Of a DNA stretch of 64,000 nucleotides, positions 1 to 50,638 are shown one piece after another. The position numbers and the translations under genes are program-made. Source of the DNA: Octopus vulgaris (lineage: Eukaryota). The first letter of the stretch is position 1. The number at the start of each line of letters is the position of its first letter. The notes beneath the pieces are model-generated. The model was not told the DNA's origin and did not search any database. It saw only the letters and a program-made list of their open reading frames with translations. The stretch covers positions 89,032,001 to 89,096,000 of the forward strand of contig OX597817.1 in the NCBI GenBank assembly GCA_951406725.2. The letters are read 5' to 3'.

Positions 1-675
1 CGCGCCCGTCGCATCGACCGCACTACCGCCTTGTCTCCTTCCCCCCGCCCACCCCCCAACCGCACCCCCTTCCCCCTCCTTTTCCACCCCTCTACCCTAC
101 CCCTTCGTCGCAAGATACTACGTGCCTTCCGTCGCCTCCAGCTTGATCCCACCACCCGCCCCATTTTCCCTAACCCACCCCTGTCCTCTTTCAAACGAGC
201 CCGCAATCTGCGTGACCTCCTGGTCCACAGCACCCTCTCCCCTTCCCCCTCAGCCCCACACGGATCATTCCCTTGCTCTAGATCCCGCTGCAACACTTGC
301 CCCTTCATCACCAACACCACCGCTGTCACCGGCTCCAACCTGCATACTGTACGCATTAGGCACTCTTTTACGTGCACCTCGTCTGGCCTTATTTACTGCA
401 TTAAATGCAACCTATGCGGGATGCTGTATGTAGGTCAGACGGGACGCCGGTTGTCCGACCGTTTCACTGAACACTTGAGGGACGTTCGCCTACACTCTTT
501 TTCTCCCGTCGCACGCCACTTCCGCTCGGCCGGCCATTCCCGAGATGACATCTCAGTGTTTGGTCTCGCCCCCCACAATGGTCGCCCACTTTCCAGGCTC
601 CACTTGGAGCAACGCTACATCTTCACCCTACAAACTACCACCCCACACGGACTTAACACAGCCCCCTCCTCTTGA
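1..675 (+). CDS. C-terminal end of a Penelope-like retroelement ORF (Cys-rich linker + GIY-YIG endonuclease), open at the 5' window edge
   Basis: Stop-free frame with FKRARNLRDLLV, CxxxxCxxC (PCSRSRCNTCPFI), FTCTSSGLIYCIKCNLCGMLYVGQTGRRLSDRFTEH, SPVARHF, LEQRYIFTLQTTTPHGLN. A Cys-rich linker ahead of a C-terminal GIY-YIG is typical of Neptune-type PLEs. Confidence 0.92.
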   Translation, partial: RARRIDRTTALSPSPRPPPNRTPFPLLFHPSTLPLRRKILRAFRRLQLDPTTRPIFPNPPLSSFKRARNLRDLLVHSTLSPSPSAPHGSFPCSRSRCNTCPFITNTTAVTGSNLHTVRIRHSFTCTSSGLIYCIKCNLCGMLYVGQTGRRLSDRFTEHLRDVRLHSFSPVARHFRSAGHSRDDISVFGLAPHNGRPLSRLHLEQRYIFTLQTTTPHGLNTAPSS

Positions 676-1477
676 GACCGTTTTTTTTTTTTTTTTTTTC
701 CGGACACACCACCCACACACACCCACCCACCTACCTACCTCCAACCCACCTACCTACCTCCCACACGCCTGTTCACACACACACATACGTAGACCCATCT
801 ACGTACATACATTCACACATTTAATCACACACACTTACAGACACACATGCACATACACACACACATACATACATACACACACGCATACATACTTACACAC
901 ACACACACACACACAGACATACATACACACATACACACACATACATACGCACATACATACACACACACTCACACACACTCACCGCACGTACATACTTCAC
1001 ACACACACACATGCACACATACATGTAGGCACATACATACATACATACCCACACATGCACACCCGTACACTGAATGCACACACACATACACCTTTTTGCA
1101 TCCAGGCAGCCCCCCTCTTTTCTGCTTTCCGGTTTTGGCTGATGGATCCTCGGTTCCCGCGTAGCGGGGCGTTCGAGGGCCTTTGCGCTCGCGCGCCTTG
1201 GCGCGCGCTGGGGGCTCGGTCGGCCCCTTTGGGCTTGCGTTGCACTGCTTGTGCGTTGTGTGCGTGAGCGCGCTTCGTGTGTGTGGGCTTGCTTCGGATG
1301 TGCGCTTGCGTATGTTTGCATACATACCCACACACTCGCATGCATCCCTACCCACATACATACACGCACACCTACTCACACACACACATACACACACACA
1401 CATACCCGCACACACACACACATACATACATACACACACATACCCACTTCAGACATACACACACACATACAGACATA

Positions 1478-1534
<57 letters not shown>

Positions 1535-3591
1535 ACGCACACGTACACATACACACACACACACACCCACATACATACATTACACTTGTATACACACACA
1601 CTTACATTCATACACACACACACCTACACAGCCATACCCTCACTCAGACACACACATCTACCTACACACACACAAACACACACTGACACACACCCATACA
1701 TACATACATCTACACACTCACGCCTACACACATACATACACACATACATAAACACACACACATACACATACACACACATACGCACACACGCATATACTTA
1801 TACACATGCACACACACACACATACATACATACACCCATATACATACACACACACATACCTACATACTCCTATACGCACATACATACACACAGACATACA
1901 CACATACACACTCACACAAACATACACACACACATACTTACACACACACTCACCTGCACGCGCACACACATGCATGACAAACACTCAAACACTCATACAC
2001 TCACACTCACATACGCACACACCAACATAAACACGCACACGCACACACACACCTACACTCCCACACACATACACACGCACCTACATACACACACGCGCGC
2101 ATACACACGCATACACACATACATTACACACGTACACACACACCTACATACACATGCATACACACACACACACAAACATGCACGGACACACCCAGACATA
2201 CATACATACACCTATATACACACGCCTACACACCTACATACACACACATATACACACGCCCACACAGCTACATACACACACATACATACACACATACACG
2301 GACACACCCATACATACTTACATACATACACCTATACACACACGCCTACACACCTACACACACACATGCACACACACACACATGTACGCACATACACACA
2401 CATATACGCACACACATATATACCCACACACATGCACACACACACATACGCACATACATGCACGCATGCACACGCGCACACCTACACGCATACACACACA
2501 CACACACACGCACGTACACATACATACATACACACACGCATACATACACCCATACACATACATGCATCCTACACACACATACATACACACTCACACATAC
2601 ATACACACACACGCACTCACTCACACACCTGTATGTTCGCGCACACACATGCACATACACACACTTCCCCACACCCACACGTACATACATACACACTCAT
2701 ACACACATACACACACACACACACACACGGACATACATCTATGCACACACATATATACACACATACTCACATACATTCATCGGACACACTGCCACCCAGA
2801 CATACACACAGACACACTCACACATCCACACGCACACATACGTACGCGCACACTCGCAGGCTCGCGCACACACGCGTTTGCGCCGGTTCGCGCACGCATG
2901 CGCCCCGCATGCACCTCGCCCTTGGACCCGACGAGACCTCCCGCCCGTTCCTGGGATGTCGCTTGTCGTTGGGTTTTCCCACGCCCGTCTCCGCGGGACC
3001 ACTCTTCCATCTTCCCCTCCGCTGGAGTCCTTTTCCTAACCCCCCCTTTTTTTCGTTACACACACGCGCACACATATACACACATTGCTTAAACATATAC
3101 ATCACTCTTACACACATTCAATCTACTCGCCACTAATACTACCACGACACTGGACACACACACACACTACTACTCAACACACGCTGGCACGCTACATACG
3201 CCCCCACCCCTTCCCCTCCCTCCCTTCCTCCTTCCTCCCTTTTCTCACTACTGACCTTTGTCTGCTATGCTGCTGCTATGTTGACCACCGTCTCGCCCTA
3301 CCTCACACGCCTACACACAGACGCACACACTAACACATACATATATTTTTTGTTTTTTTACCTCGCCTCACACACACACATACACACACGCACACGCACA
3401 CACTCACACATACACACACATCTGTTGCGTTACCAACCTTGTCTCCACTCTTTTGCCTTTAAAAACCCACTTTGCTCTTGTTATCGTAAACATCCGCCTT
3501 TCACCATGTGCTACTCCTAACACCAGCCGTTTTTTTCTCTATCTCCGTTGCCCGCTCCGGGATCTTTCTTTCCTCTCTCTTCCTTCTTTAT

Positions 3592-3626
3592 GTTTCCGAC
3601 GAAGAGCTCCGCTCGAAACGTCATAC
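3592..3626 (+). ncRNA. Minimal Penelope-type type I hammerhead ribozyme (U4C core)
   Basis: GUUU CCGACGA A GAGC-UCC-GCUC GAAAC GUC AUAC: 4-bp stem II, palindromic ACGU stem III, GUC site, stem I with one mismatch. Confidence 0.75.
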
Positions 3627-3712
3627 CTCCCTGCTTCCATTTCCTGAGCGCCTATTAATAATAATACTGTAATTGTTCCATTGTTGTTGTTTTTTTGTTT
3701 CCCGTTTGGATT

Positions 3713-3783
<71 letters not shown>

Positions 3784-3797
3784 CATACATACATACA

Positions 3798-3844
<47 letters not shown>

Positions 3845-3847
3845 GCG

Positions 3848-4010
3848 TATGTGTTTGTCTCCACAACATCGCTTGACAACCGATGCTGGTGTGTTTATGT
3901 CCCCGTAACTTAGCGGCTCGGCAAAAGTCCTGGGTCGATTTGCTCGAGTAAAGGCGGTGCTCCAGAATGGACGCAGCCAAAATGACTGAAACAAGTAAAA
4001 GAATAAAAGA
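3848..4010 (+). mobile_element. 3' half of the CORE-like microsatellite-containing SINE
   Basis: CGCTTGACAACCGATGCTGGTGTGTTTATGTCCCCGTAACTTAGCGGCTCGGCAAAAG...GACTGAAACAAGTAAAAG recurs at about 6225, 22300, 29330 (-), 41300, 47680, 49450 (-) and 56380 (-). Confidence 0.8.
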
Positions 4011-4639: not shown

Positions 4640-5250
4640 GCAATAAATACTAAAAAACGTACACATAGGAAAGACACAGAAGGACCCTAACTCTTCATCA
4701 GTTATCGACTGAAATACTAGTACACAATTTCATGCCTTTAACGACAAGACTGACAACTTTGTATAGTGGCGGCACTCGCAAAATTTGCGGAGAATTGGGG
4801 CTCAAGTAAACAAAACGATAGAGAGTAGACGTTCGAAAGTAAACAAATGTAATTTGAAACGATTGACGAAGATTGAATAAATATCGCCTTTCTGTCAAAC
4901 AGACGGGAATGATGGGTAATGCCTGGAAGAAATCCTGAATGGATATAAAAAGAGAAGAGATAGATGTTGACCGGCAAGCTAAGCGTCTGGTGGCAAAAGA
5001 CAGACAGATGAGAAAATTAGTCACGGGTCACATGTGGGCAGTAGATAGAAGGGAAAGAGGATGAGAGAGAGGGAGAACGAGCGGCAGAGAGAGGAAGGAA
5101 GGAAGGAAGGGAGAGAGGAAGGGAGAAGGTCTACAATTACAAGTGAGAAAACGAGACAGAGGAAGAGAGGAAGTTGGGATGTTAGAAAAGGAATATGAAG
5201 ACGAGAGAGAAAGAAAGAAGATAGCGTCCCAAAAAATATATAAAACCTTA
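4640..5250 (-). mobile_element. Non-coding element carrying re-ordered hammerhead copy A
   Basis: On the minus strand: CT-rich 5' part, CACATGTGAC motif, T-rich linker, ribozyme and T-rich 3' end. Same layout as 18190-18830 and 45205-45680. Confidence 0.6.
4685..4800 (-). ncRNA. Re-ordered (NUH-GAAA-CUGANGA) hammerhead-like RNA, copy A
   Basis: Minus strand: X AAUUCU | hairpin C-CGCAA-AUU-UUGCG-A | Y GUGCC ... CAGU-C-UUGUCG ... GGCAU-GAAAUUG ... CGAUAA-CUGAUGA-AGAGUU. All helices can form. Confidence 0.75.
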
Positions 5251-18189: not shown

Positions 18190-18830
18190 CCATTGTCTCT
18201 ACCTCTCTTGTTCTTCATCCTTTCTGGTTTTCTCTCCGACACTTCCCTATTCTTCTCCACTCCCCATTCACCGTTCCCTCTTTCTTACTCCTCCTCGACT
18301 CTCTCGTCGCTGACACGTGATCAGAGGGAAGCCATCTTTCCAACTATCTTCCGACTATCTTCACAAAGACCAGACCAGCTTATCCCGTCTCTACATAAGC
18401 TGTCTCCTTAAGCGTTCAGAATAATGTTTCCCTCGTCTTGACTTAACAGCCCTCATCGTTTGTTTTTACTGTTTTGTTCTCATTGTTCTGTCTTTTACGG
18501 TTTGTACTTTTTTATTGTTTTTACAGTTTTGTTCTTACTGTCCTGTTCTTGTTATCACTTTCACCCTCCGCAAAAAATCCCAAATTTTATTTAATTTGCT
18601 TTGCGGGAAGGACTGTTTCAACGAAGTCGTGTCTTGTCCTTACCTTCGAACGCAAATTAGATAAAACAGGGACAACTGAAGAAGGGGAATATTCCTTGTG
18701 CTGTATATCTTTTTTCTCTGTTATTTTCGTTGTTTGAAAAAAAGTTCGTTCCTATGTTTTTGTTTTTATGCTTTCGTTTCTCATTATGTTCAACGTTTTT
18801 TTTATGTCCTGTACTCATATATGTATGTAC
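18190..18830 (+). mobile_element. Non-coding element carrying re-ordered hammerhead copy B
   Basis: Shares TTAACAGCCCT, the ribozyme region and the 3' end GTTC(A/G)ACGT..TTTT..TGTCCTGTAC.CATATATG with 49625-50085. Confidence 0.75.
18560..18689 (+). ncRNA. Re-ordered hammerhead-like RNA, copy B
   Basis: CCCU|CCGCAAA..UUUGCGG|GAAGG ... GUGU-C-UUGUCC ... CCUUC-GAACGC ... GGACAA-CUGAAGA-AGGG. One A of GAAA is missing. Confidence 0.7.
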
Positions 18831-45202: not shown

Positions 45203-45496
45203 TCTGAGTGTCTGTCTCTCTCTCTGTTTCTCTTCCTCTTTTACTCTCTCTCGTTGCTCATACGTGACCATCGTCCTTCTTTGTTTTCCTCATGTGATCA
45301 TCTTTCTTCTCCTTCAGTTCTGTCGTACAGACTGCGCGTATTCCTATCTATCTCCTCTTCTATCTTTTCTTTTGTCAAAGACAATATTTCTCCAGTGTTC
45401 ACTACTTTACTTCGTCTGGTCTGTCGATCCTCCATGTTTGTTTTCGTTAAATTTCCTTGTATGTCTCCACTGCCCTGTTTTTGTTACCAACTTTGA

Positions 45497-45613
45497 CCCT
45501 CCTCAAACCCCAAATTTTATTTTGGCTTGCGGGAGCAACTGCCTTCAAAGTCTTATGTTGTCGTTCAATGCTCGAAATAAGGTGTAGAAGGACAGCAGAC
45601 AACTGATGAAGGG
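45497..45613 (+). ncRNA. Re-ordered hammerhead-like RNA, copy C
   Basis: CCCU|CCUCAA..UUGCGG|GAGCA ... CUUAU-G-UUGUC ... UGCUC-GAAAUAAG ... GACAA-CUGAUGA-AGGG. Position 17 is G, which is normally not cleavable. Confidence 0.72.
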
Positions 45614-45770
45614 CCGTTTTTTTAAAGTTACTTGTCTTGTTTCCCATTTGCTTCTCGTTGTTTGCGTGCACAAAGGTTAGGAGGAGTTTTCGTCGGGCTA
45701 CCCAAGCTTATAGATATGTCCCACTTGGATATAAGGAACCAAAACAACTATCATTGATACGGAACTTTCT

Positions 45771-49163: not shown

Positions 49164-49624
49164 TATATACACACACGACGAGCTTTTTTCAGTTTCCGTC
49201 TACCAAATCCACTTACAAGACTTTGGTCGGCCCGAAGTTATAGTAGAAGACACTTGCCCAAGGTGCTACGCAGCAGGACTGAACCTGGACCCATGTGGTT
49301 GGGAAGCAAGCTTCTTACCATACAGCCTGTTTGTCATGTATCTTTTATCTTTTCCTTTTTTCACTCATTAGACTGCGACCATGGTGGGGCACTCCTTGAA
49401 GAATTTTAGTTGAACAATTACATTTCTTTTAAGCGTGATATCATTTTCTTTTGCCGAACCGCTAAGTTACGGAAACGTAAACACACTAACACCGATTGTT
49501 AAGCGGTAGTGGGTACAAAATGTAACAGACACATGCGCGCGCGCACACACACTATACTTGTTTCAGTCATTAGACCCAGGCCATTATGGAGCACCACCTT
49601 TATGTGTGTGTGTATATATATATA

Positions 49625-50085
49625 TATTCGACATCTTCCTCTCTCGTCGTCCACTATAATCCAGCGTTTGCAATACTTTTTTCGTCTGGCGTTAACAGCC
49701 CTTCTTATCTTGTTCTCCTTGTCCTGTCTCTCACTGTTATATATTTATTTTTCCACTGTTTATATATATATTTTTTACTGTTTATATGTTTGTACTGTCG
49801 TTACCGTCTTGCTTTTTTTACCCCTCTGCGAAAAGATCTCAGAATTTTAATTGATTTGCTTTTCGCAGGAAGGAATTTTTCATTCGAAGTATACGTCTCG
49901 CTTTTATCCTTCGAAACGTTTAGTAGATGAAACTTTAGCGACTGAAGAAGGGGATTTTTCGTTGTGCTTATTGTCCTGTATCTCCTTTTTTTTGCCTGTC
50001 TTGTTCCTTGGTTTGTGTCTATGTTTTTCGTCTCTCTATGTGTTCGACGTCTTTTTGGTGTCCTGTACACATATATGCGTGTATA
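49625..50085 (+). mobile_element. Non-coding element carrying re-ordered hammerhead copy D
   Basis: Homologous to 18400-18830; follows a short (TA)n and ends in TA-rich low-complexity sequence. Confidence 0.75.
49821..49953 (+). ncRNA. Re-ordered hammerhead-like RNA, copy D (best preserved)
   Basis: CCCCU|CUGCGAAAAG..CUUUUCGCAG|GAAGGA ... ACGU-C-UCGCU ... UCCUUC-GAAACGU ... AGCGA-CUGAAGA-AGGGG. All helices Watson-Crick, intact core, GUC site. Confidence 0.82.
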
Positions 50086-50142
50086 TGTACATGTAGAGGT
50101 AGGTACGTACATATATGTTTATATATATGCATATATTTTATT

Positions 50143-50193
<51 letters not shown>

Positions 50194-50456
50194 CTGTCAC
50201 TCGGTCACTGTCCCCTCTCTCTCTTACCCCCTTCTCTCTCTTATCTTGCAACTTGCTGCCTCGTTTCCATCGGCCGCTTGTTCAACATGTCTTATCACCG
50301 AAAAGGTACTTATTTTTCCACGCTGTTGATATTGTTTTTGTGTCTCTCTGTTTGTCTCAAAGCCGTAGGGCGCCTGTGTCATCCATGTTTTTAACAGTTA
50401 CAGTCCCCAAAAAAGATTTTTCGTTTCATATTCGTCTCTGTTGCGTTTCATTCTTT

Positions 50457-50546
50457 CCTTCTGTGGCTGGCGGATTCAGAGCGGATCTCAGAATTAAACA
50501 GCCGAAATCTGCGATGAGGGATCAGTTTCTGACTGAAGAATGAAGG
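50457..50546 (+). ncRNA. Re-ordered hammerhead-like RNA, copy E (no junction hairpin)
   Basis: CCUUCUGU|GGCUG ... GCGGAU-C-UCAGAA ... CAGCC-GAAAUCUGC ... UUCUGA-CUGAAGA-AUGAAGG. Lies in a (TA)n-flanked element at about 50190-50615. Confidence 0.78.
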
Positions 50547-50638
50547 CTTTGAATGACCCGTTTGTTTTTTTGTCCGTCCCTTCGTGTATTTCACGTTATT
50601 TATGTAAAGGTTTACTATATATATATATATATACACAT

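Follow-up and report, generated by a model that had tools for sequence, protein, structure and literature searches.

The window, a 64,000-nt stretch of Octopus vulgaris DNA, contains five copies of an RNA motif that is probably a core-opened hammerhead ribozyme of the SGC/CSG family, residing in Penelope-like retroelements that are non-autonomous (non-LTR retrozymes) and use the proteins of Naiads. The conserved RNA structure itself is almost certainly real, and the intact copies very likely encode an active hammerhead, as judged from their sequence. The five copies represent five different families, among at least ten families of (TA)n-targeting, 5'-truncated and partly tandem retroelements. 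A preliminary description had recognized the hammerhead core in a non-circular strand order, C-B-A, and had considered that order undescribed. In the type copy, D, the sequences it gave for blocks C (49893-49902), B (49907-49919) and A (49937-49953) are all correct, and the core in this order is borne out by the descriptor search and the covariation reported below. The order itself is not new, because it has been published as type SGC (Eckert et al. 2023, PMC10085705, in the portions available to us). The retroelement-tail nature (Naiad type) of the copies was absent from that account.

A strict C-B-A descriptor (stem I >=4, stem III >=4, CUGANGA, GAAA and NUH) matched three of the five window copies, whereas 60 windows shuffled by dinucleotides gave 0.07 on average, with a maximum of 2. 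Family-derived profiles detected exactly these five copies in the window, at the places originally reported, and no others. The core (CUGANGA, GAAA, A15.1-U16.1 and H17) is intact in three of the five; the two copies missed by the strict descriptor (18560 and 45497) are decayed, and their family majorities keep GAAA and H17. Changes from the family majority number none in D, one in E1 and four plus a deletion in B, with more in the C and A copies (Table 1). Chance origin of the C-B-A layout was ruled out by the shuffled windows together with search-matched helix controls. Rfam hammerhead models gave no match on copy D or on eight loci, in agreement with the expectation in the preliminary description that type I/II/III descriptors would miss this ribozyme, and the best 150 of the 419 matches in a whole-window Rfam scan were all to microsatellite-driven miRNA models. 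Two features of the surroundings were also recorded: families D and E1 lie head to tail (window 49612-50630) with one (TA)n run between them, that is, a repeated insertion into the same microsatellite, and window positions 1-4000, strongly C-rich (GC skew about -0.54) and containing long open frames that overlap, are probably repetitive DNA of simple or tandem type.

Table 1. Ribozyme copies in the window and the parts of copy D (window coordinates)
Feature	Position	Strand	Remarks
Copy D element, 5'-truncated insertion of ~835-nt non-coding unit	49628..50145	+	99.2% identity to tandem unit over 529 nt; (TA)n flanks; fixed 3' end
X, 5' strand of ribozyme-closing helix (copy D)	49821..49825	+	pairs with 49949-49953
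Hairpin H, 10-bp basal stem (copy D)	49826..49868	+	flush between X and Y
Y, displaced stem II 5' strand as read from pairing (copy D)	49869..49874	+	G49869 = G10.1; pairs with 49907-49912; covariation in 10 families
L 5' strand (copy D)	49878..49884	+	pairs with 49926-49932; by analogy, counterpart of the type SGC stem I-II interaction helix (available text of PMC10085705)
Block S (copy D): stem III 5' strand, GUC triplet, stem I 5' strand	49893..49902	+	C17 = 49897
Predicted cut (copy D)	3' of C49897	+	from the hammerhead consensus
Block G (copy D): stem II 3' strand (Y'), GAAA, stem III 3' strand	49907..49919	+	
L 3' strand (copy D)	49926..49932	+	pairs with 49878..49884
Stem I 3' strand and CUGANGA core (copy D)	49937..49948	+	block C minus its stem II strand
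X' (copy D)	49949..49953	+	immediately 3' of A9
Family E1 ribozyme	50457..50546	+	without hairpin H; C17 at 50487; element ~50190-50614
Family B ribozyme, decayed	18560..18689	+	GAAA short of one A; C17 at 18633
Family C ribozyme, decayed	45495..45615	+	G at position 17 (45557); 9 substitutions relative to family majority
Family A ribozyme, decayed	4684..4801	-	12 substitutions; C17 at 4748

The motif has the layout X-H-Y-L-S-G-L'-I'-CUGANGA-X'. To evaluate its helices, we took ten family majorities (49-81% identical) and compared Watson-Crick pairing of cognate strands with that of strands swapped between families. Cognate pairing was far higher in stem I (1.00 vs 0.43), stem III (0.93 vs 0.29), Y/Y' (0.98 vs 0.41) and L (0.90 vs 0.23), each at permutation P <= 1e-5, values that overstate independence because the ten families are related (six distinct Y strands). 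Since Y and L had been found by search, the test was repeated with equal search freedom for the controls: the best run in Y was 5.3, compared with 2.5 for swapped and 2.3 for shuffled strands, with 0 of 2000 shuffles reaching 5.3, and the best run in L was 5.6 vs 3.0. Neither the core words nor U16.1 vary, C or A occupies position 17 in all ten family majorities, and CUGANGA, GAAA, A15.1-U16.1 and H17 are present in 10/10. All three hammerhead stems, I, II and III, show covariation.

The proposal that pairing is kept while sequence changes is therefore strongly upheld for I, III, Y and L and less so for X. That the two long linkers pair, as L, had been correctly perceived; its placement needs correcting for the 50457 and 4800 copies, in which the true L follows immediately upon Y. 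The first pair of Y/Y' is G10.1-C11.1 in nine of the ten families and G-U in the tenth. Because Y begins with a G facing C11.1 (U in one family), we read it as the 5' strand of stem II: on this pairing evidence, Y is the displaced 5' strand, with X and H inserted between A9 and G10.1, so that the chain is open at that link via X and H. What had been taken for a splint replacing stem II is thus more aptly regarded as that stem itself.

The upstream X|H|Y strand that had been postulated is substantiated most strongly at Y. For X, which together with H was assigned by folding, the comparison gives -7.2 vs -4.3 kcal/mol (P 5e-4), weaker support than for I, III, Y and L, and folding returned no X prediction for family N or for E3 (short majority). 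X, H and Y are flush in six of the ten families (A, B, C, C2, D and E4), separated by a 1x1 mismatch in family F and 1-2 nt loose in the E clade (single E2/E3 copies), whereas hairpin H is absent from family E1. The four-way junction envisaged earlier fails for the 50457 copy, where the junction is three-way, H being missing. The minimum-energy fold of copy D is a rod of X, H, L and III, of ordinary overall stability (z -1.67), and I and Y are crossing helices outside it. Each strand of L is connected to stem III, and in several families the two make up an almost uninterrupted helix.

Genome searches with each window family gave 345-3532 first-look candidates apiece, which overlap between families and hence are not copy numbers. 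The 40 best candidates, query excluded, matched at 100% for D, 98-100% for E1, 93-96% for B, 87-91% for C and 82-88% for A, and further families (C2, E3, E4 and F) were obtained from flanks. In 600 kb sampled at fixed places, profiles detected eight ribozyme fragments, one of which passes the strict descriptor, which also gave one chance match; at this density of ~13 per Mb, the 2.8-Gb genome would hold, very roughly, some tens of thousands of copies, the window being richer. The same random sample included a 1146-aa endonuclease-RT LINE ORF (L171:159-3596, minus strand), a Gypsy-like gag-pol region (L122:2631-7426, plus strand) and a BCL11A-like zinc finger (L155:1834-2460, plus strand).

The 133 nt of the copy D ribozyme occur in 72 exact genomic copies, 23 of them in eight clusters (control, 0). 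The D unit is ~835 nt long, non-coding and 68% pyrimidine, with one core per unit: there is one CUGANGA in sense and none in antisense, hence no second ribozyme, and no coding ORF, the longest ATG ORF being 120 codons of low-complexity DNA. Tandems were seen in families D, A and C, with units of about 670 and 765 nt in A and C; in one case (G000:C2:83360508-83366015, L025-L030), a six-unit D array is followed by an inverted, 5'-truncated copy. Among 30 locus rows, some of them overlapping, 24 end in (TA)n 187-208 nt past X', four run into the next unit, one has a short tail and one was not parsed, and family A has optional 3' tails. All ten of the 5' ends examined lie at different places, nine of them against (TA)n. 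Such (TA)n ends, 5' truncations, tandem or inverted copies and tails are marks of Penelope-like target-primed reverse transcription. As non-coding tandem units with one ribozyme each that are dispersed by retrotransposition, these elements behave as non-LTR retrozymes; their ribozyme is not the type I hammerhead by which such retrozymes are also defined. No data set recorded as containing the unit is annotated as RNA. Contigs from four of 22 sequencing runs, their RNA status being a guess, covered the unit; three runs included the unit-to-unit joint and one contig bridged the predicted site, although DNA, tandem RNA and circles are indistinguishable there.

The anatomy of the window elements, namely (TA)n targeting, 5' truncation, tandem and inverted copies and a 3' tail, matches that of Naiads. 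In the available text of Craig et al. (2021, PMC8557442), Naiads are described as preferring (TA)n and forming tandem, inverted and tailed insertions, the cephalopod members are described as remnants, long inactive, and the group is reported to be devoid of canonical hammerheads, with unexplained 'HHR_core/HHR_half_core' in some. We inspected by eye, using no program, the last 420-600 nt of 53 of the 54 consensus sequences published there, along with one motif passage. The split layout is recognizable in eleven of these 53 ends, which represent about eight lineages and five phyla: Clytia-3, three near-identical Acropora, Morbakka-2, Pomphorhynchus, Eulimnadia, two Octopus, Euprymna and Beroe. 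There are flaws among them, namely mismatches in one Acropora and in Euprymna, a stem I of 2 bp in Beroe and a weak X in Octopus, and in Acropora, Pomphorhynchus and Eulimnadia X|H|Y appears flush, with helix letters that differ from those in the window. By the same inspection, seven of the eight nematode Naiad 3' ends carry a complete type CSG hammerhead that includes an L helix (in Ascaris, A9 and G10.1 are separated by one additional base), the Stegodyphus mimosarum tail carries a standard type SGC with a 3-bp stem II, and Parasteatoda is weakly SGC. No hammerhead could be parsed by eye in the remaining 33 of the 53 ends. Morbakka Naiad-1 and the bivalve and hemichordate Naiads have what we take to be twister-like words instead of a hammerhead.

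In the octopus genome, 388 exact matches were obtained for a motif taken from the published Octopus Naiad 3' end (control, 0), and sixteen fetched loci with this motif yielded family N, which has the same split layout and by eye matches the published Naiad 3' UTR. One locus (L239) starts at an apparent Naiad stop codon, also by eye, about 900 nt upstream of the listed motif match. No intact Naiad ORF was found in this genome, nine longer Naiad-tail loci being devoid of a usable ORF, and a Pfam scan of 73 of 103 long ORFs for an autonomous partner identified two GIY-YIG domains, both C-terminal and neither with the split ribozyme downstream. The link to Naiad by sequence concerns family N, not the five window families. 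Two Penelope-like loci were recorded along the way: L145:4400-6182 (minus strand), a Neptune-like remnant (RT end, Cys linker and C-terminal GIY-YIG) that ends in (TA)n, and L129:9284-10000 (minus strand), where a PLE-like element has its GIY-YIG ORF end and the following 1.3 kb lack CUGANGA. The 3' UTR of L145 contains, by eye, a canonical type I hammerhead with a short stem III.

We also scanned metagenomes, with a pattern whose linker word was known from the window families and the coral Naiads, so that the search was not blind. It returned at least 119 loci, seven of which pass a loose parse and two of which are convincing (L258 and L310), from one record set and another organism. L258, L285, L295, L310 and L336 come from one metagenome record set, and four aligned loci, two complete and two 5'-truncated, form a repeat family that by eye is near the Acropora Naiad tail. 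The best reading of the elements is that they are non-autonomous Naiad retrozymes.

We propose the following scheme. A tandem array or a read-through transcript would be made, in which each unit first folds as a closed rod of X, H, L and III, with the partner strands of stems I and II displayed in the loop of III. Stems I and II (the latter being Y) would then form a normal hammerhead core from which X and H project at the A9-G10.1 link, and cleavage 3' of C17 (C49897 in copy D) would give a unit-length RNA, perhaps circularized. Priming at (TA)n by a Naiad endonuclease/RT would start from one fixed site, some 250 nt downstream of the cut, and reverse transcription running over more than one unit would generate 5'-truncated, tandem and inverted copies, while the ribozyme would cut multimeric transcripts, perhaps with one unit acting on another. 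Whether the core-completing stems I and II are supplied by a neighboring unit or a second molecule (in trans, as a dimer) we consider an even call. In its cleavage, circularization and priming steps, the scheme parallels what has been proposed for PLEs and retrozymes.

The main rival on the folding side is that the same ribozyme acts as a single-chain, multiply pseudoknotted monomer in which the far ends of L or stem III fray, a possibility that we hold at appreciable but minority weight. Single SGC and CSG constructs cleave in vitro while being transcribed (PMC10085705), and the 3-6 nt that connect stem I with Y' resemble the ~3 nt of SGC; by a crude estimate, the span is ample in five of the ten families and about equal to the need in the other five (34-44 A available vs 36-39 A needed). 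However, L and III are linked on both strands and nearly continuous in several families, so a one-chain fold must bend back or fray; a single chain can accommodate all helices only if some pairs melt. The same holds by eye for the Naiads of coral, clam shrimp and acanthocephalan, with L-III links of 0-3 nt. In three published Naiads a monomer looks, by eye, impossible without fraying, and Eckert et al. flagged the same steric puzzle for 0-nt links, with no concentration test in the passages found. Far less credible is an ordinary type SGC in which stem II forms directly between the bases 3' of CUGANGA and 5' of GAAA, X, H and Y being regulatory or incidental. At least four direct pairs are possible in D and B, after an A-C mismatch, but across the ten families such pairing scores 0.18 for cognate vs 0.24 for swapped strands (P 0.91), and 0.32 vs 0.36 (P 0.83) with a one-base shift, against 0.98 for Y/Y', which refutes it for most families.

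Other rivals concern what the RNA does and what moves it. A conserved, non-cleaving derivative of a hammerhead, serving RT/endonuclease docking or transcript stabilization, would accord with the genomic copies continuing through the predicted site to a fixed 3' end ~250 nt downstream, and with minimal PLE hammerheads cleaving poorly in vitro (PMC4209133 and PMC3705267, as far as available). We consider it improbable: every catalytic position and the NUH are kept in all ten families despite changing helix letters, and a religated circle serving as RT template would be expected to yield copies that continue through the site. It is also conceivable, albeit unlikely, that the ribozyme is real and the short elements are mobilized by another active Penelope-like clade, for example a Neptune-like one. 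The random sample did contain one Neptune-like ORF remnant that ends in (TA)n (L145). PMC8557442, in the available text, portrays cephalopod Naiads as remnants, yet family D is very young, and beyond the ribozyme layout families A-F have no tested sequence identity to Naiad. Against this rival, L145 has, by eye, a canonical type I hammerhead, and the split layout sits in Naiad tails.

If correct, these findings extend the hammerhead to a wiring outside the six permutations thought to exhaust it, and take non-circular RNA permutations from anonymous metatranscriptomes into animal genomes, in roughly tens of thousands of copies here. They offer a testable answer to the apparent absence of hammerheads from Naiads, as opposed to other Penelope-like clades, and add many natural CSG examples to the two known before. 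If tolerated, a helix junction at A9-G10.1 would offer a new entry point for the design of switchable or trans-acting hammerheads. More tentatively, with somewhat less than even confidence, we suggest that the Naiads as a clade use several non-circular permutations of the hammerhead. Nematode members would have CSG and spider members SGC, and those of ctenophores, cnidarians, acanthocephalans, crustaceans and cephalopods would have a seventh wiring, opened at A9/G10.1. This last form may be a rod-shaped half-enzyme that cuts only upon loop-to-junction docking of two units, and in this way the element would keep count of its units. The forms would be circular permutations of one another, which would explain the rise and spread of non-circular RNA permutations in tandem retroelements.

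Within the open literature, with subscription journals mostly beyond its coverage, we found no prior description of the opened core, of the animal-genome setting or of the missing Naiad ribozyme, and no tested precedent for a pair of helices at A9-G10.1; the strand order is known. The available portions of Perreault 2011 and Zhan 2024 contain no helix at this link, which the available text of PMC10085705 treats as unbreakable. As described in part of Zhan 2024, A9 turns sharply and forms a sheared pair with G12 on which G10.1-C11.1 stacks, a geometry that an insertion at A9-G10.1 could disturb. In minimal PLE hammerheads and CChMVd(+), one extra base is found between A9 and G10.1, and PLE hammerheads act as dimers (PMC4209133 and PMC3705267, in the portions available). 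The window RNA thus resembles them in having an insertion at the same backbone link, and the PLE forms share the proposed dimeric action; it differs in that theirs is one nucleotide, not a helix junction holding the chain ends, within a circular type I/III order.

The closest relatives are the non-circularly permuted types SGC and CSG, known, as far as the available text goes, from metatranscriptomes or metagenomes only, with just two natural CSG sequences published (PMC10085705). The window RNA has the S-G-C order rather than the circular C-G-S order of Rfam types I/II/III, and shares with type SGC the full core, the short link from stem I to the 3' strand of stem II and a helix (L) that connects stems I and II at their far ends. 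It differs in that block C, unbroken in type SGC, is split between A9 and G10.1, in having the extra helices X and H, in that L is tied to stem III on both strands and in residing in the retroelements of an animal genome. Read as a circle (L', I', CUGANGA, II5', L, S, G), the RNA has the order of SGC/CSG, with the chain ends entering through X, at A9/G10.1.

Among mobile elements, the Naiad PLEs, as portrayed in the available parts of PMC8557442, have in common with the window elements the (TA)n target, tandem and inverted insertions, 3' tails and core words in the 3' UTR, whereas the window elements are short and non-coding. With metazoan non-LTR retrozymes (PMC7229834; bioRxiv 10.64898/2026.07.22.740005, both in part) they share non-coding tandem units with one hammerhead each, low GC and a proposed mobilization by PLEs. 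Those retrozymes, however, carry type I hammerheads and usually measure 150-450 bp (Cervera and de la Pena 2020; Li et al.), whereas the window elements have a ribozyme that is not type I, units of ~670-835 nt and an extreme pyrimidine bias.
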